A stretch of DNA of 39,092 nucleotides from a phage, in sequence record PZ452614.1, one strand, 5' to 3'. The notes beneath the pieces are model-generated. The model did not search any database. It saw only the letters and a program-made list of their open reading frames with translations, and had not been told where the DNA came from. Below are positions 2,209 through 35,500 of the stretch, piece by piece. Position 1 is the stretch's first letter. Every line of letters starts with the position of its first letter. A program made the translations under genes and the position numbers.

Positions 2209-2457
2209 TCATGCAGCGTTGCTCACGGGACGATATACACGTTGCTGAACAGGAGGTTTTTTACCCTGGAACTCTGCCGGGCTTGCTGCCTGACGTTCAT
2301 CAAGCCAACGCTCAACTTCGTCACGGTTCCATGCGCAGCGTTTGTCAGTGATATACCAGCGTTTAGGAAATTCCCCTGCGCGCTCCATACGGTCGATAGT
2401 GCTCCATGACAGTGGCACCACCGCCAGGAGTTCCTTCTTACCTAATGCACCTTTCAT
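2209..2457 (-). CDS. AlpA/Vis-like HTH excisionase/regulator
   Basis: 82 aa; …VPLSWSTIDRMERAGEFPKRWYITDKRCAWNRDEVERWL… matches the AlpA pattern; Shine-Dalgarno AGAGAGG upstream. Confidence 0.8.
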   Translation of the reverse strand: MKGALGKKELLAVVPLSWSTIDRMERAGEFPKRWYITDKRCAWNRDEVERWLDERQAASPAEFQGKKPPVQQRVYRPVSNAA

Positions 2458-2506
2458 AAATACCTCTCTTGGTTGCAGTGCGGCGCGTGTGGCGCCGCGG
2501 TGGTGG

Positions 2507-4267
2507 TTACATAGATGTTTCGTTTAATTCTTCCCGACGAACGCTGTAAACGTCGGTGGCTTTTGCCAGCAGTTCGTCATCATCTGAAAGTTTTTGTGCA
2601 ATGTATTTGTAAGCCTTATCCAGTTCGGAGACAGTGCTGTAATTCATCGCTGCGCTGGTAAAGGCCATCAGCATTTCTTCTGGATCACGGCTATCCGCTT
2701 TACGAGTTTGCTCATCAGGCTTTTTCACTGGTTTAGCGTTGATCAGACTGTTCATTCCCGCAGCAGTGGTCGTTTGCGGAGTAATGTCTCGCTCAACGCG
2801 CGGTGCCGTTTCCTGTAATTCGTCTGGTGTGTAGACGCCCATGATTACGTCAGGACAGTGCAAGCGAGACCAGCGTTTTGTCGCAAGGTATGCGAGTTGT
2901 TGTTTCGGATCACTGGCCCAAAGTGTGGAGTTTCTTACCTGTGCTTGAGACAGCATTAACTCAAGCACTCGAGGTTGATCCTCGCCCTTCATGGTTGCCC
3001 ATACGCGAACACCGCAGCCTTCTTCGTCTTTTAGAGTCCAGCCTGGTGCGATATATGGATTGCCGTTTTTGGATGTTTTCTCAACAAACTTACCGATCAC
3101 GCGTTCCCACGGCCCGAACCACTCGTAGTTGATGCGATCTTTTGTTGGCGACATCGTTGAGATAACTGCGTTTACTAATTGGGCTTCATAACCTAGCGTG
3201 CCGTTCACAACATGGGTTTTCTGAGCCACGGCAAACGGGTTCATTCCCCACTGCGCAGCCTGCATTGCCACGGCCATGCAATCAGCTGGTTTCCCGGCGA
3301 GGTGCGCCGGTACCGTTACGCGGCTTTGCGCCATTACCTCGGCGAATTTCATCAGTTGGTTCAAGCCGTCTGGGCTGAAAATAGTTGCAGCAGTTCCAGC
3401 GATTGCTGTGTCTACTGGTGCGTTGATGTTTGCGATGTCGTTGCTCATATGTACATATCCTGTTTTGCGTGCCCACTCAGGGCGTTTAATGATTTCCACA
3501 CCGCCCCATTCATCATTTATGCGGCATTCGTGATAGGTATTCAGATCCCGGCGGAACAGAGCGTGCCCGGCATCGACATCCGGCGCATCCAGCTCGAACA
3601 CGCGTACCGGATACCGACCACAATCAATGCTTTCGCTCACGGCAAGAAAGAAAAAACCATGCGGCTGACCAGTAACCCTCATTGCGCCTTCGCGGTACAT
3701 TGCGTCCTGCACGTGGTAGCGGAATTCCTCGATGTGGCGTGCAAAACGGTCCATATCTGCAACCTTTTTCACGTCGACGATCACGTTGTGCTCGTTCAGC
3801 CATTTGTCTGGACGAATGCGGCACAACTCACCAGTATCTTCATCATTCCAGTACATTGATGCTTCGCAGAAACCAGGTGCTTCCAGCATCCAGCGTGCCG
3901 CCGGGTGAGCCATTGCGCTATCACGCATCAGCTCCAGTTTCCGCCACTGCTCGGCATCAAGTACCGTAATCCCCATATCCGCTACATCACGAAGAAATGC
4001 TTCTTCGTCAGCTTTACCTTGTTTCGTCCGACGATCGAACTTCGGTGAAACAATGAAGCGTTTGTCGAATTCTCCAGGCTCCAGAAGCAGACAGTGCAAT
4101 GCGGTTCCAATATCCAGTGCAGACTTTTTCTCTTCGTCTTCTGGTGCTGCCTGGACCCATTTAAGAAGCGACGGATTCTTGGCAACCATGTCCAGTTGCG
4201 ACTTACTCACGCCGTCACCGGCGTGGTAGTCTTCGTTGCTGATGTCGAAATAAATTCCCGGTTTCAT
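2507..4267 (-). CDS. PD-(D/E)XK exonuclease (RecE/Exo VIII-like N-terminal domain) fused to a C-terminal domain of uncertain identity, possibly RecT-like annealase
   Basis: N-terminus DISNEDYHAGDGVSKSQL… typical of exodeoxyribonuclease VIII PDDEXK-like proteins; continuous 586-aa ORF. Confidence 0.7.
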   Translation of the reverse strand: MKPGIYFDISNEDYHAGDGVSKSQLDMVAKNPSLLKWVQAAPEDEEKKSALDIGTALHCLLLEPGEFDKRFIVSPKFDRRTKQGKADEEAFLRDVADMGITVLDAEQWRKLELMRDSAMAHPAARWMLEAPGFCEASMYWNDEDTGELCRIRPDKWLNEHNVIVDVKKVADMDRFARHIEEFRYHVQDAMYREGAMRVTGQPHGFFFLAVSESIDCGRYPVRVFELDAPDVDAGHALFRRDLNTYHECRINDEWGGVEIIKRPEWARKTGYVHMSNDIANINAPVDTAIAGTAATIFSPDGLNQLMKFAEVMAQSRVTVPAHLAGKPADCMAVAMQAAQWGMNPFAVAQKTHVVNGTLGYEAQLVNAVISTMSPTKDRINYEWFGPWERVIGKFVEKTSKNGNPYIAPGWTLKDEEGCGVRVWATMKGEDQPRVLELMLSQAQVRNSTLWASDPKQQLAYLATKRWSRLHCPDVIMGVYTPDELQETAPRVERDITPQTTTAAGMNSLINAKPVKKPDEQTRKADSRDPEEMLMAFTSAAMNYSTVSELDKAYKYIAQKLSDDDELLAKATDVYSVRREELNETSM

Positions 4268-4718: not shown

Positions 4719-4737
4719 AACTTGTTACCTCGGTCTG

Positions 4738-4814
4738 TTACCGTTGAGGTAATAATTATGCGTATCTGGTTTGATGTCAATAGATATGAGTTAAAAAAAT
4801 TACCCGTTAGGTAA
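4738..4814 (-). promoter_or_regulatory. Leftward early promoter (PL-like) with two flanking TTACC-N5-GGTAA operators
   Basis: Minus-strand -35 TTGACA (4780..4775), 16-bp spacer, -10 TAATTA (4758..4753); operators at 4738..4752 and 4800..4814. Confidence 0.55.
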
Positions 4815-4826
4815 TCGAATAGGCAA

Positions 4827-4871: not shown

Positions 4872-5456
4872 TTATTGTTTGTTTTTTTCGTTCTGGTTGA
4901 TGACAAATTCAATGTAACTTTCGATCTTTGCCTTCTCTGTTTCAGGTAACAATGCGTAGCGCGAGCGGTCATAGTTGATAGTCGCGGGGTCGTGCGGGTG
5001 AATCAGTAATTCATATCCGTGACGCCCAAATGCGGATGCAACATTCTCCAGGGTGGAAATGGAAACGCTGACCTCATTGTTTAACAGGCGGCTGATTGTT
5101 ACCTGGGCGACGCCGGATGCGCGGTGAAGTTTTCCCTGCGTTGAAAGGTCGCGGCTTTCGCTCATCCAGCGTTCCAGGTTGTGAGCCGCCAGTTGACCAA
5201 TGTCGCTTGGTCCGACAGGCTGAAAACCTTCCTGAGAAAGCGAGCGATCGATATCAAGCCAGTTACGGGGTTTATTGGCGGCAGCTTCAATTTTTCGCGC
5301 AACCTGGTCGCCGATAACCTTCTTGCCAAGAGCCCAGCGGTTTACCAGATTTGCCTGAGTTCCAAGTTTTTCTGCCATCCGCGTCTGAACACCATTGAAT
5401 TCACGGTCGATCAAGTCGTTGAGATTTTGCCTGCGGACGTCCTGGATACTTTTCAT
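4872..5456 (-). CDS. CI-like phage repressor with two HTH regions and no S24 peptidase domain
   Basis: 194 aa; HTH-like segments near residues 25-45 and 115-135; divergent from a Cro-like gene; located between the leftward and rightward operator clusters. Confidence 0.75.
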   Translation of the reverse strand: MKSIQDVRRQNLNDLIDREFNGVQTRMAEKLGTQANLVNRWALGKKVIGDQVARKIEAAANKPRNWLDIDRSLSQEGFQPVGPSDIGQLAAHNLERWMSESRDLSTQGKLHRASGVAQVTISRLLNNEVSVSISTLENVASAFGRHGYELLIHPHDPATINYDRSRYALLPETEKAKIESYIEFVINQNEKNKQ

Positions 5457-5511
5457 TTTCTGGAAAATCGCCTCATATATGAATCAGTAGATGATTCAAT
5501 TTAAAGCAATA

Positions 5512-5578
5512 TTACCCAACAGGTAAATGCACCCCATAGGTAACTATCCTTGATTTTTGTTACCTTATGGGTGAATAT
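5512..5578. promoter_or_regulatory. Rightward operator cluster (three TTACC-N5-GGTAA-type sites) overlapping a candidate PR
   Basis: Sites 5512..5526 (perfect), 5529..5543 (GCACC half), 5560..5574 (GGTGA half); -35 TTGATT 5550..5555 and -10 GAATAT 5573..5578. Confidence 0.6.
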
Positions 5579-31381: not shown

Positions 31382-31406
31382 AGGCCGCTTTCGCGGCCTT
31401 GTTTTT
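31382..31406 (+). terminator. Rho-independent terminator ending the structural operon
   Basis: Stem aggccgc/gcggcct with loop tttc, then TGTTTTT. Confidence 0.65.
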
Positions 31407-31522
31407 AACGAATGCCGCCTCCGCCCGTCAGAAGAACCCTGCCTTGTCGTTGATGTACTCCGCGTGCGTCTGGATATCACGCAGGCATTTGCTCACACCG
31501 ACGATGTAGCAGAACATGGTGG

Positions 31523-32107
31523 TCAGCTCCGCCGCCGCGCCTGATACATCATGCCCGTCGTCCTGTTCATCAGCAGTGAGTGCTCCGTCAGGCCGAGAAC
31601 ACCAGACGGCGAATGAATCAGGCTACGGTAGCCGGGCTTCAGTGGGGCACTGTAGGTTTTGTTCTCTATCTTCATCGCCTGCATTACTGCTGACGCCGTG
31701 GCGTTGGCTACCTGGTCGGCAACCATCTTTATGCGTTCTTCCTGCGGGAGCGAGTTTTTAATGTAACTTCCGGTGCGGCGGATCTGAGGAAGAACCTCAC
31801 CTGTAACCCATTTACGAAAGCGGTAGGGGATAGTGCCTGGTGTCACCGCATCGCGGCAGCGGAGGATCAGTGTGTAGAGTCCTGACTCGGAGATGATGAT
31901 CGATTCTTGCTCACCGCCAGGGGTGTCGGTTGAAGCGACACCCTTCTCATCATCATCAAGTTTTCGAACAGCATCTCGATGGTTTGCTATGCCTATAGCC
32001 CGACAAACATCTGAAGCGATAAACCATGGCTCACCATTAATGACGATTACCCGTATATCGGCTTGGGATTCGAAAGAAAAAATGGACGTGCTTTTTGTAG
32101 CTGTCAT
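31523..32107 (-). CDS. Antirepressor with Bro-N domain
   Basis: …FSFESQADIRVIVINGEPWFIASDVCRAIGIANHRDAVRKLDDDEKGV… matches the Bro-N pattern; Shine-Dalgarno AAGGTAA. Confidence 0.8.
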   Translation of the reverse strand: MTATKSTSIFSFESQADIRVIVINGEPWFIASDVCRAIGIANHRDAVRKLDDDEKGVASTDTPGGEQESIIISESGLYTLILRCRDAVTPGTIPYRFRKWVTGEVLPQIRRTGSYIKNSLPQEERIKMVADQVANATASAVMQAMKIENKTYSAPLKPGYRSLIHSPSGVLGLTEHSLLMNRTTGMMYQARRRS

Positions 32108-32263
32108 AGTGGTTACCTTTTAGTCTGGTTAATCACCACTACCTACGCCAATCGGTTGGTGGTGAACTGTGCAGGGTTGGCGTAACCGGCTAAAAGGACC
32201 CGGCGCACCTTTCGGTGCCCCCACACAGCCCACCATAATACGAATGTGACCGTGCTATACGCA

Positions 32264-32284
32264 TAAAAAAACCGCTTGCGCGGT
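32264..32284 (-). terminator. Terminator-like hairpin inside the antirepressor operon spacer
   Basis: Stem accgc/gcggt with loop ttgc, followed on the minus strand by a 7-nt U-run. Confidence 0.45.
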
Positions 32285-32360
32285 GAATGCGCCTTTTAGT
32301 AACCCGGGACGCCAATCCCGGCACTGGATTTTGCCAGTGCCCGATTACTATGGCACAATA

Positions 32361-32401
32361 GGAGTGCTTATATTTACCTTTGCGGTAAATATAAGCACTC
32401 C
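32361..32401. repeat. 41-bp perfect palindrome (18-bp arms, 5-nt centre) with a TTACC-N5-GGTAA core
   Basis: GGAGTGCTTATATTTACC TTTGC GGTAAATATAAGCACTCC read directly. Confidence 0.9.
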
Positions 32402-32419
32402 ACTTGGTAATTGCAAACC

Positions 32420-32677
32420 TTATCTGGTTTGTTTTCGTAATTGTTCGGCACAATAGTCGAGATGTGTTTGCAGATCCCGCATGGACATCTGTGAGCTGGT
32501 GACGTAGTTAATCAGTGCAGTCAGTTCGGCAAGTGGGCCATCGACATTAAATCCATCCTTATCGAGATCCCGGAGTAATTTCATCAAGTGCGATCCCTCC
32601 ACCAGTGACCTGACGCCTCCCGGCGTGTGAATCCTTTCGGTAAATCCGTCTTCCAGTGGATAGTGATACTGCGGCAT
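32420..32677 (-). CDS. Hypothetical protein (85 aa), first gene of the LexA-box-controlled operon
   Basis: ATG at 32677 after GGAGAAG; LexA-like box 22 to 37 nt upstream. Confidence 0.55.
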   Translation of the reverse strand: MPQYHYPLEDGFTERIHTPGGVRSLVEGSHLMKLLRDLDKDGFNVDGPLAELTALINYVTSSQMSMRDLQTHLDYCAEQLRKQTR

Positions 32678-32696
32678 CTTATCTTCTCCATGCAAT

Positions 32697-32716
32697 AACT
32701 GTATAAATACACAGTA
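32697..32716. promoter_or_regulatory. Candidate LexA (SOS) box
   Basis: aaCTGTataaatacACAGta: CTGT-N8-ACAG, 17/20 match to the consensus TACTGTATATATATACAGTA. Confidence 0.7.
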
Positions 32717-32753
32717 GCAAATAATTTGTTTGCTATCCAGCACGTTTTGCGAA

Positions 32754-32820
32754 TCACCTGAAAGGTAATATCTGTTCGTATTTATGTGTTATCTATCCAT
32801 ATGTGGTTTTTCAGGTAATA
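32754..32820. promoter_or_regulatory. Divergent regulatory region: operator-like site and ATGTGGTT / GGTAATA motif before the tailspike
   Basis: TCACC-TGAAA-GGTAA 32754..32768; ATGTGGTT 32801..32808; GGTAATA 32814..32820. Confidence 0.5.
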
Positions 32821-32872
32821 GAATAACCGGATATGCGGCGCAACGGGTGCTGCGACTATCTGGAGATTTAAC

Positions 32873-35500
32873 ATGACGGTCTCAACCGAAGTTAACCACA
32901 ACGAATACACCGGTAACGGTGTTACGACATCATTTCCGTATACCTTTAGGGTTTTCAAGGAATCTGATCTGGTAGTACAGGTTGTTGACCTGAACGATAA
33001 CATCACTGTTCTGACGCTGGATACTGACTACACAGTAACCGGCGCAGGGGGATATGAAGGTGGTAATGTAATACTTGCAACAGCTCTGGCTAATGGTTAC
33101 CAGATTTCCATATCACGTGAACTGTCGGTTACGCAGGAAACAGATCTCCGTAACCAGGGGAAGTTCTTTGCTGAGGTGCATGAGGATGCGTTTGATAAGC
33201 TGACAATGTTGATTCAGCAGGTTCGTAGTTGGTTTAGTCTGGCGCTACGTAAGCCGTCATTTGTTGCTAACTATTACGACGCAATGGACAACTATATTCG
33301 TAACCTTCGTGACCCTGTAAGACCGCAGGATGCGGCTACAAAAAAATATGTTGATGGGGTCGCAGAAACAAACCTGAGCAGAACGCTACGAACCCCTGAG
33401 CCGATACCAGCATTGCCGGGAATTGAGCAACGTAAGAATAAGATTGTTGCAATGGATGATACTGGAAATCCGATAATGGTTTTGCCTGAATCTGGTTCGG
33501 CTACTGATGTAATGATCCAGTTAGCGGCAAATGATGGATTTAAGTTTATTGGTCAGTGCCCTGATATATTGACACTAAGAACAATAGAACCTGAAAAAAA
33601 TGGTCAAAGGATCACGTTGCGACAGCATACGATCGGAACTGGGCTTGGTGGAGGGGTATTCAGAGCTGTACTTGATGGAACTGGCTATACCGATGATGAT
33701 GGTGTTGTAATAAAAACAGCAGGTGGTTCTGTATGGTTACGGGTTAATGCAGATAAGGTTAATCCGTTTATGTTTGGGGCCACTGGCGTGGCTGATGATA
33801 CAGCAGCACTGCAAAAGATGCTTGAATGTGGCAGGGCGGCTGAGCTTGGCACAAATGTCTGGAAAGCATCTAATCTTGAGCTAAATAACAAGTCGTGTTC
33901 ACTATCTGGGTCTGGTCTACACGTTTCCAGGATAGAGCAAATATCTGGGGCAACAGGCGCGTTACTGACAATTACTCAGGATTGCAGCCTGATTTATTTG
34001 TCCGATTGTGGCCTGTATGGGGATGGAATAACTGCGGGAACAAGCGGGGTAACGATGGAGACAGGAAACCCAGGTGGGGCACCAAGCTATCCATTCAATA
34101 CCGCCCCTGACGTTCGTAGGGATCTTTACATTAGCAATGTTCACATTACAGGATTTGACGAGTTAGGATTTGATTATCCTGAAACGAATTTTTCCGTCTC
34201 AACGCATGGATTATTCATAAGAAACATTAAAAAAACCGGGGCTAAGATCGGAACTACCGATTTTACATGGACAAACCTTCAAATTGATACGTGTGGGCAG
34301 GAATGCTTAGTGCTTGATGGTGCTGGTAATTGCAGAATTATAGGTGCCAAATTAATTTGGGCTGGTTCAGAAAATGAAACACCATATTCAGGATTACGTA
34401 TTTCTAATTCACAAAATGTAAACATGACAGGAGTTGAGTTACAGGACTGTGCATACGATGGATTGTATATTAAAAATTCAACTGTTGCTATCAGTGGGTT
34501 GAATACTAACAGAAATAGTGCATCATCAAATCTGTCATACCATAATATGGTTTTTGAAAACAGTATAGTAACTGTAGATGGTTATGTTTGCCGTAACTAT
34601 GCTGCTACATCGCTATATGATCTAAATTCACAAGCCGGAAATGTGAGGTGTATTGGTTCCGATAGTACCGTATTGATAAATGGTATTTACGAGTCAGAAG
34701 TAAACAGCGAACGACTCATGGGTGACAATAATCTTATTCAGCCATATTCTGGTGATTTAATAATAAATGGCCTAAAAAACTATTATACATATACAGGAAG
34801 CGTAAAAAACAATATTCCTACATTTGACGGAGTCGTTACAACCGCAACATATGTAAGCGCTCCTTCGATACTAGGGCAAGGAAACATGCTTAAGTTAACG
34901 CAATCAAACAAGGATAAGTTATTATTTTCTGATAAAGTATCGAGACATGGGTGTACAATCGGCCTTGTTCTAATCCCGTCATTTACGGGTGCAACAACTA
35001 TGACAGCTTTCACTCTGGGGAGTGGATATTCGCCCTCTGGAAACTCTGCTGTTATGCAATTTATAGTTAACTCCAGTGGTGTGCAGACTATAGCAATATT
35101 ATTATCCGGTGATGGTATAACTCAAACGTTAACAAGCGATCTGACAACGGAGCAAGCGTTAGCTTCAGGAGGCGTATATCATTTTGCGATGGGATTCGCT
35201 CCAGGCCGATTATGGTGGTCTATTATTGATATAAATACCGGAAGGCGTATACGACGGGCGTACAGACAACCAGATCTTCACGCCGCATTTAATAGCATAT
35301 TCAACAGCGGAACATCTTCTATCACCGCATTTTCAGGACCATTAGCAGGTGATATTGCATGTGAAGGGGCAGGTTCGCATGTTTATGTTGGCGGTTTCTC
35401 ATCTGAGTCAGACTACGCAGCGAGCAGAATGTACGGATTATTTACCCCAGTAGACCTGGATAAACAATACTCATTCCGCACGCTGAACGGAAATATTTAA
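32873..35500 (+). CDS. Tailspike protein
   Basis: 875 aa; conserved-looking N-terminal domain, then repetitive Gly/Asn/Ser-rich beta-helix-like C-terminal part with lower GC. Confidence 0.8.
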   Translation: MTVSTEVNHNEYTGNGVTTSFPYTFRVFKESDLVVQVVDLNDNITVLTLDTDYTVTGAGGYEGGNVILATALANGYQISISRELSVTQETDLRNQGKFFAEVHEDAFDKLTMLIQQVRSWFSLALRKPSFVANYYDAMDNYIRNLRDPVRPQDAATKKYVDGVAETNLSRTLRTPEPIPALPGIEQRKNKIVAMDDTGNPIMVLPESGSATDVMIQLAANDGFKFIGQCPDILTLRTIEPEKNGQRITLRQHTIGTGLGGGVFRAVLDGTGYTDDDGVVIKTAGGSVWLRVNADKVNPFMFGATGVADDTAALQKMLECGRAAELGTNVWKASNLELNNKSCSLSGSGLHVSRIEQISGATGALLTITQDCSLIYLSDCGLYGDGITAGTSGVTMETGNPGGAPSYPFNTAPDVRRDLYISNVHITGFDELGFDYPETNFSVSTHGLFIRNIKKTGAKIGTTDFTWTNLQIDTCGQECLVLDGAGNCRIIGAKLIWAGSENETPYSGLRISNSQNVNMTGVELQDCAYDGLYIKNSTVAISGLNTNRNSASSNLSYHNMVFENSIVTVDGYVCRNYAATSLYDLNSQAGNVRCIGSDSTVLINGIYESEVNSERLMGDNNLIQPYSGDLIINGLKNYYTYTGSVKNNIPTFDGVVTTATYVSAPSILGQGNMLKLTQSNKDKLLFSDKVSRHGCTIGLVLIPSFTGATTMTAFTLGSGYSPSGNSAVMQFIVNSSGVQTIAILLSGDGITQTLTSDLTTEQALASGGVYHFAMGFAPGRLWWSIIDINTGRRIRRAYRQPDLHAAFNSIFNSGTSSITAFSGPLAGDIACEGAGSHVYVGGFSSESDYAASRMYGLFTPVDLDKQYSFRTLNGNI

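Follow-up and report, generated by a model that had tools for sequence, protein, structure and literature searches.

Phage phiV10 of Escherichia coli O157 very probably carries an SPC32H-type Rep/Ant/LexA lysis–lysogeny switch

The stretch of DNA analysed here (the window, 39,092 nucleotides) is the complete genome of the E. coli O157 phage phiV10, an epsilon15-like member of the genus Uetakevirus, and we put the probability that it carries a lysis–lysogeny switch of the SPC32H Rep/Ant/LexA type at about 90%. Since the product of a small gene behind an SOS box and a repressor encoded elsewhere in the genome both match the partners in PDB 5D50, phiV10 is taken to carry an orthologous pair of the SPC32H Rep/Ant system, and it is this orthology to a characterised system, together with conservation of the box, that supports SOS induction as the correct reading of the locus. 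A previous reading made from the letters alone (hereafter the sequence-only reading) had proposed that induction proceeds via a LexA-controlled antirepressor and not via RecA-mediated cleavage of the repressor. The core of that proposal holds, given the Rep/Ant orthology, the conserved box and a repressor without an S24 domain. The elements of the proposed switch are as follows.

32697..32716, unstranded: LexA (SOS) box, AACTGTATAAATACACAGTA, which reads TACTGTGTATTTATACAGTT in the ant sense and matches the consensus at 17/20 positions
32420..32677, minus strand: ant, predicted small antirepressor of 85 aa (PhiV10p24, a hypothetical protein in the record), assigned from PDB 5D50 chain E and phrog_450
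32711..32739, minus strand: putative ant promoter, with −35 TGGATA (32739..32734), extended −10 TG (32719..32718) and −10 TACTGT (32716..32711)
4872..5456, minus strand: rep, 194-aa repressor (PhiV10p40, described in the record simply as an HTH protein), which has two HTH regions but lacks S24

The phage was identified by megablast, in which positions 31400..33000 of the window are 100% identical to phiV10 (NC_007804/DQ126339) and likewise to typing phages 9 and 10 of O157. The 39,104-bp phiV10 record is circularly permuted in the window (window = record + 11877, or record − 27215). The record is longer by 12 bases, and the two coordinate mappings share 12 bases (11878..11889), an observation consistent with a 12-base terminal repeat in a linear record. 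As in SPC32H, the ant locus is flanked by virion genes and a divergent tailspike gene. Elsewhere in the genome, a tRNA-Arg(TCT) gene at 14730..14806 on the minus strand (found by ARAGORN, and at 73.3 bits by the Rfam tRNA model) overlaps the 3′ end of the hypothetical gene PhiV10p04 on the opposite strand and is missing from the RefSeq feature table.

The LexA box at 32697..32716 is real, judging by its consensus match, its uniqueness and its conserved position. When the window was searched with the LexA consensus TACTGTATATATATACAGTA at up to three mismatches, this was the single site found in 39 kb, its CTGT-N8-ACAG core is intact, and 0 of 100 dinucleotide-preserving shuffles yielded a site within the same distance of the consensus, which bears out the 17/20 match claimed in the sequence-only reading. 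The bare CTGT-N8-ACAG core occurs three times in the window against 0.38 expected; the copies at 14599 and 19141 were dismissed as extra SOS boxes on account of their G+C-rich spacers and more than three mismatches to the 20-mer. The core of the box occupies the stretch 22 to 37 nt ahead of an 85-aa minus-strand ORF, whose ATG is at 32677, in accordance with the earlier placement.

To follow the box across relatives, the ant–tailspike intergenic region was aligned for phiV10, SPC32H, SPC32N, epsilon15, Tyrion, BUCT554 and three Klebsiella relatives. The box column is common to phiV10, SPC32H, epsilon15, Tyrion and BUCT554, five phages from three host genera, while the flanking spacer diverges. 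In these five E. coli, Salmonella and Enterobacter phages the boxes match the consensus at 16–18 of 20 positions with the core intact, and the phiV10 score of 17/20 equals that of SPC32H; in the three Klebsiella phages aligned, the left half of the box has ATG and not CTG. SPC32H and SPC32N differ by 2 nt across the 4.2-kb locus, and one of the two differences is a CAG>AAG change in the box homologous to that of phiV10, which we take to be the published natural mutant. Kim and Ryu, writing in J Virol in 2013, are said to have traced constitutive Ant expression in SPC32N to a single-base change in a LexA site overlapping the ant promoter.

The gene behind the box points to the antirepressor itself. 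Its product matches PDB 5D50 chain E, ‘Anti-repressor protein’, with E=2.9e-46, and is 88% identical over 82 aa to SPC32H Ant, whose gene is annotated ‘ant: anti-repressor protein’, so that phiV10 has the small Ant homologue (about 86 aa) that belongs to an SPC32H-type switch. It also matches phrog_450 (E=2.4e-47), a family listed as ‘unknown function’; the only PHROGs matched are phrog_450, phrog_15539 and phrog_1760, and a Pfam search returned no family above the cut-off. A Shine-Dalgarno sequence, GGAGAAG (32689..32683), precedes the ATG at 32677. A GTG start at 32743, which would extend the ORF to 107 aa and place the LexA box within it, was rejected because homology to SPC32H Ant starts at the ATG at 32677, with its GGAG Shine-Dalgarno. 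The sequence-only reading had placed a small-gene/antirepressor operon behind the box: the box does front the 85-aa gene, but by homology to SPC32H Ant the predicted LexA-controlled antirepressor is the 85-aa protein itself and not the Bro-N protein encoded further downstream.

The same alignment suggests how LexA could silence this gene. The geometry TGGATA-14-TGn-TACTGT is kept in all the E. coli, Salmonella and Enterobacter relatives aligned while the spacer varies, and we infer that it represents the −35 and extended −10 of the ant promoter, with the −10 formed by the first half of the LexA box. At 7/12 the hexamers are weak, and this promoter was missed by the generic scan. With the −10 inside the first half of the box, LexA would cover both the −10 and the predicted start site, expected near 32704. 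The box thus overlaps the putative ant promoter, and it aligns with the SPC32H box.

The repressor completes the pair. Residues 1–190 of Rep match PDB 5D50 chain A, ‘Repressor’, with E=4e-42; the protein aligns with SPC32H Rep over its full length at 42% identity, and its C-terminal half matches PDB 5D4Z, the tetramerisation and Ant-binding domain of SPC32H Rep. Both entries belong to the SPC32H Rep/Ant system (Kim and Ryu 2013, J Virol; Kim et al. 2016, PNAS). Pfam finds HTH families alone in phiV10 Rep (HTH_3 at residues 106–147 and a YdaS/HTH-like stretch at 21–61) and no S24 peptidase domain even at E≤1, so the description of 4872..5456 as a CI-like repressor with two HTH regions and without S24 stands. 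Rep therefore does not have the C-terminal S24 domain with a Ser-Lys dyad of self-cleaving repressors of the lambda CI or LexA kind; it has the make-up of an SPC32H Rep homologue, with two HTH domains and without S24. In SPC32H, Rep reportedly remains uncleaved during SOS induction, a result attributed to Kim and Ryu in 2013. Were the palindrome a chance match or some other element, with induction by RecA-dependent cleavage of the repressor, one would have to set aside the 100 shuffles, the conservation of its position across genera, the lack of S24 in Rep and the apparent orthology of Rep to a repressor reported to stay uncleaved; this explanation is barely credible.

With no more than 42% identity between the Reps of phiV10 and SPC32H, an effect of phiV10 Ant on its own repressor is a prediction from the orthologous pair. 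Between the two phages Ant is 88% identical and Rep only 42%, making the antirepressor far more conserved than its presumed target. This contrast hints that Ant recognises a conserved surface of Rep, and so Ant may cross-induce related prophages with diverged Reps.

Taken together with the SPC32H precedent, from which LexA binding, the Ant–Rep contact and the absence of Rep cleavage are carried over, these elements suggest the following course of events. In the lysogen, host LexA on 32697..32716 would cover the ant −10 and predicted start and keep ant silent, and Rep, with two HTH regions and no protease domain, would keep the prophage repressed via about a dozen dispersed ATTACC-N5-GGTAAT operators. 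DNA damage would activate RecA, leading to LexA self-cleavage and transcription of ant. The 85-aa Ant would then bind Rep and free the DNA of it, by analogy with SPC32H, in which an Ant tetramer contacts the C-terminal domains of two Rep dimers, and the lytic genes would come on without cleavage of Rep. For SPC32H, PMC7380047, citing Kim and Ryu 2013, states that Ant is made upon LexA self-cleavage and inhibits the repressor by protein–protein interaction, and PMC9638917 describes an Ant tetramer that engages two Rep dimers and disrupts the tetramer of Rep. The Bro-N gene would stand apart from this sequence of steps as a separate inserted module of the P1 immI/Gifsy-1 isrK type, under the predicted control of a Rep-type operator and of the C4 and IsrK RNAs. 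The stretch downstream of ant contains the following features.

32361..32417, minus strand: promoter-like site TTGCAA-17-TATATT (32416..32388) with a Rep-type operator (32373..32389), from the promoter and motif scans
32265..32353, minus strand: IsrK-type sRNA, the equivalent of the c4 a1/b1 target, from the Rfam isrK model; a1 UUGGCGU (32315..32309), b1 CUAAAAGG (32299..32292)
32155..32240, minus strand: C4-type antisense RNA; a′ ACGCCAA (32183..32177), b′ CCUUUUAG (32197..32190)
32116..32151, minus strand: a2/b2 targets; a2 UUGGCGU (32151..32145), b2 CUAAAAGG (32123..32116)
31523..32107, minus strand: Bro-N antirepressor gene (PhiV10p23), 194 aa; Pfam Bro-N E=1.6e-21, phrog_130 ‘anti-repressor Ant’
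31428..31517, minus strand: PhiV10p22, a 29-aa ORF and out-of-frame remnant of an Ant-like domain (MFCYIVGVSKCLRDIQTHAEYINDKAGFF), from translation and alignment
31382..31399, unstranded: hairpin terminator separating the structural operon from the convergent ant/Bro-N side, from the terminator scan and the annotation of phiV10

In the interval from ant to Bro-N, the Rfam isrK model scores 75.9 bits at 32340..32265 on the minus strand (gathering score 50), overlapped by a c4-a1b1 match that narrowly misses its gathering score (44.1 bits against 46.7), and the terminator scan places an intrinsic terminator of IsrK at 32284..32271, followed by U7. The full length (1–87) of the C4 RNA model (RF01695; gathering score 45) is matched at 77.7 bits. 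The C4 region, whose fold has z = −8.2, overlaps a 35-aa ORF (32129..32236) corresponding to orf45 of Gifsy-1. The single-stranded a′ and b′ stretches of C4 are exactly complementary (7 + 8 nt) to a1/b1 upstream in IsrK and to a2/b2 downstream, and b2 covers the Shine-Dalgarno of Bro-N, whose ATG is at 32107, which is the a/b arrangement of P1 immI. The C4 a′/b′ loops are accordingly placed to pair, by prediction, with the region of the Bro-N ribosome-binding site. The phiV10 record annotates this stretch only with ‘similar to SF0880’ and a terminator. The 200-nt C4/IsrK stretch (32132..32334) is also about 80% identical to more than 100 records of Stx1- and Stx2-converting phages, where it precedes genes annotated ‘anti-repressor Ant’.

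Before isrK, a perfect 18-bp inverted repeat (32361..32401) has the operator at 32373..32389 in its middle. Seven isrK copies from a Uetakevirus context (phiV10, ZX5, Tyrion, phiv142-3, TL-2011b, ST512-KPC3phi13.3 and Kp4865-1) have ATTACC-N5-GGTAAA equally far upstream, while the Stx-phage copy of isrK lacks the operator and has TTGACG-18-TATATT instead. The IsrK/C4 module thus appears, from these sequences, to be wired to the local repressor. The inverted repeat is unlikely to be the ant terminator: no U-tract follows it, and relatives keep the central operator but not the long arms, which phiV10 alone has. SPC32H, epsilon15 and BUCT554 lack the module and have ant alone with a terminator directly after it, from which it follows that the IsrK/C4/Bro-N module of phiV10 is an insertion.

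The Bro-N gene lies, as had been claimed, at 31523..32107 downstream on the strand of ant, and the Pfam match confirms its family. Its protein is not intact. The corresponding proteins of ZX5, TL-2011b, Tyrion and phiv142-3 are 218–234 aa long (231 aa in ZX5 and TL-2011b, where they are intact), and the last ~80 residues of all four are homologous to the small Ant across Ant's whole length. Residues 150–226 of the ZX5 protein match residues 3–79 of PDB 5D50_E with E=1e-13 and are 44% identical to phiV10 Ant, and the phiv142-3 protein has the same Ant-like tail behind a different N-terminal domain. In phiV10, residues 148–181 match phrog_450, and a 16-bp deletion at 31566/31567 shifts the frame inside the Ant-like domain, leading to a stop at 194 aa, so that the protein keeps ~33 residues of the domain and does not have the intact Ant-like C-terminus of ZX5 ORF4. 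The deletion was checked base by base against ZX5; match lengths suggest that the 16 bp are kept in the other relatives. Programmed frameshifting that would rejoin Bro-N and PhiV10p22 was rejected, since comparison with five relatives shows the break to be due to the 16-bp deletion. The phiV10 Bro-N gene is probably disabled.

These observations bear on the suggestion of the sequence-only reading that one operon comprises the 85-aa gene and Bro-N, an arrangement under which both would be LexA-controlled and Bro-N would be the effective SOS antirepressor. The two genes do share a strand and lie 312 nt apart. Read-through is documented in Gifsy-1, where some transcripts pass the IsrK terminator and the short IsrK activates translation of the antirepressor-like AnrP (PMC4825925). 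In ZX5, whose Rep is reported to be identical to phiV10 Rep, overexpression of the intact Bro-N homologue lowers prophage counts ~1000-fold (PMC9782041). However, the small protein is already of the characterised antirepressor type, ant stands alone before a terminator in SPC32H, epsilon15 and BUCT554, and the phiV10 Bro-N protein is without most of its Ant-like domain. Moreover, a promoter-like site with an operator, an intrinsic terminator and a C4 RNA complementary to the Shine-Dalgarno separate the two genes, so what survives of the operon is the shared strand, with a separate inserted module in between. A single LexA-controlled operon with Bro-N as its effector is therefore very unlikely, and the 85-aa protein remains the predicted SOS antirepressor.

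A second question is whether Rep itself also acts on the ant promoter. The operators next to rep and ant are as follows.

4737..4753, 4799..4815 and 5511..5527, unstranded: immunity-region operators flanking rep; epsilon15 annotates repressor sites at equivalent positions
32753..32769, unstranded: Rep-type operator ATCACC-TGAAA-GGTAAT (ATCACCTGAAAGGTAAT), one mismatch to the motif, between the divergent ant and tailspike genes

A scan of the window for ATTACC-N5-GGTAAT with up to two mismatches finds 15 sites against 0.92 expected, 11 of them within the 6.5% of the genome not annotated as coding. The family is dispersed (4737, 4799, 5511, 5896, 7842, 7904, 11963, 11981, 15128, 32373, 32753, 36568, 38746), and its sites are nearly all intergenic and in front of transcription units, a pattern that recalls the scattered C1 operators of P1. 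The sequence-only reading had noted an operator-like site just upstream of the box and suggested dual control. The site is real, being one of the 15 family members.

Repression of the ant promoter by both LexA and Rep would have several points in its favour. All relatives keep the operator upstream of ant, in SPC32H and epsilon15 as a perfect palindrome. In the epsilon15 record, the corresponding site upstream of gp19 (its ant) bears the annotation ‘protein_bind: repressor, lysogeny’, and a Rep tetramer of the kind described in PMC9638917 could bridge sites. On the other hand, the operator ends 13 bp upstream of the putative ant −35 and is centred about 57 bp upstream of the predicted start (near −57), with no overlap of the core promoter, and a Rep block on ant would defeat induction after loss of LexA; for these reasons dual control is unproven. 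In SPC32N, furthermore, the box mutation alone, which is itself seen in the sequence, is reported to make Ant constitutive despite Rep. The operator may equally serve the divergent tailspike gene, which starts at 32873, or help Rep to bridge distant sites, although inspection by eye found no convincing sigma-70 promoter for the tailspike gene near it. We consider joint repression of ant unlikely, and control by LexA remains the preferred account of this promoter.

Rep-type operators accompany two further arrangements. Following the annotated terS start (record position 41) there is a terminator-like hairpin, GCCGCC-aactat-GGCGGC-TTTATTTT (within window 11918..12000), and then two tandem operators (11963 and 11981) directly before an ATG at 11999, which may be the true start of terS. 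In the Klebsiella relatives, other cargo genes, for example one encoding a DUF2335 protein, lie directly downstream of ant, and this cargo (2262..2650 and 2262..2960 of the sequences of two relatives) sits behind a TTGACG...TAAGAT promoter-like site and an ATTACC-N5-GGTAAC operator. These sequences suggest that the position behind ant receives cargo under Rep control.

There is a further, tentative reading that we regard as possible though less probable than not: Uetakeviruses such as ZX5, TL-2011b and Tyrion may have a two-tier antirepressor circuit, of which phiV10 would be a natural mutant. The first tier may be the stand-alone LexA-controlled Ant, and the second an Ant-like domain paralogue fused to a Bro-N (or other) N-terminus, from a promoter that may overlap a Rep operator and with translation that may be gated by IsrK/C4 RNAs. 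If so, removal of Rep by Ant would derepress the second tier and lock in the lytic decision; alternatively, the second tier could answer non-SOS cues, like IsrK in Gifsy-1. In phiV10 this tier would be disabled by the 16-bp deletion.

Compared with known systems, phiV10 is closest to SPC32H, with which it shares the genus Uetakevirus, Ant, a full-length Rep homologue, the column and score of the box and the upstream operator. It differs in its Rep, whose 42% identity suggests that immunity specificity probably differs, and in the IsrK/C4/Bro-N module, which SPC32H does not have downstream of ant. The SPC32H authors are said to set Ant apart in structure from the antirepressors of sipho- and myoviruses. 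According to PMC3121763, the antirepressors of 186 (Tum), Gifsy-1/3 and Fels-2 are small, LexA-repressed proteins that inactivate a non-cleavable repressor by protein contact, as is proposed for phiV10. This likeness is a functional analogy only and not membership, and neither Pfam nor PHROGs links phiV10 Ant to the Tum family.

The inserted module has its own relatives. With P1/P7 immI (C4 – icd – ant) it shares the order of elements, namely promoter and operator, a1/b1, C4 a′/b′, and a2/b2 over the ribosome-binding site, and P1 C1 has operators scattered over the genome, as phiV10 Rep does. Unlike immI, the phiV10 module has an intrinsic terminator between a1/b1 and C4 (the IsrK form), a Bro-N protein with an Ant-like tail where P1/P7 have icd/ant1-ant2, and an operator of the Uetakevirus Rep type. 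With the Gifsy-1 isrK-orf45-anrP locus (PMC4825925) it shares IsrK, then a short ORF inside the processed RNA, then an antirepressor-like gene. In contrast to Gifsy-1, the phiV10 module adjoins a LexA-controlled ant, its promoter-like site overlaps a Rep-type operator and its antirepressor gene is frameshifted.

The Rep/Ant/LexA mechanism in phiV10 is already known from SPC32H, a phage of the same genus, with crystal structures, and no new mechanism is proposed. Modestly new are the apparent wiring of an IsrK/C4 module to a Rep-type operator and the Ant-like C-terminal domain of the Bro-N antirepressors in this group, a domain that a deletion has broken in phiV10. For phiV10 itself, the analysis proposes functions for two vaguely annotated genes, PhiV10p24 (hypothetical protein) and PhiV10p40 (HTH protein), and would explain the expected response to DNA damage of a phage that serves for typing and as a reporter for E. 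coli O157:H7. This could be useful for engineering phiV10 as a detection phage or for stabilising phiV10 lysogens.
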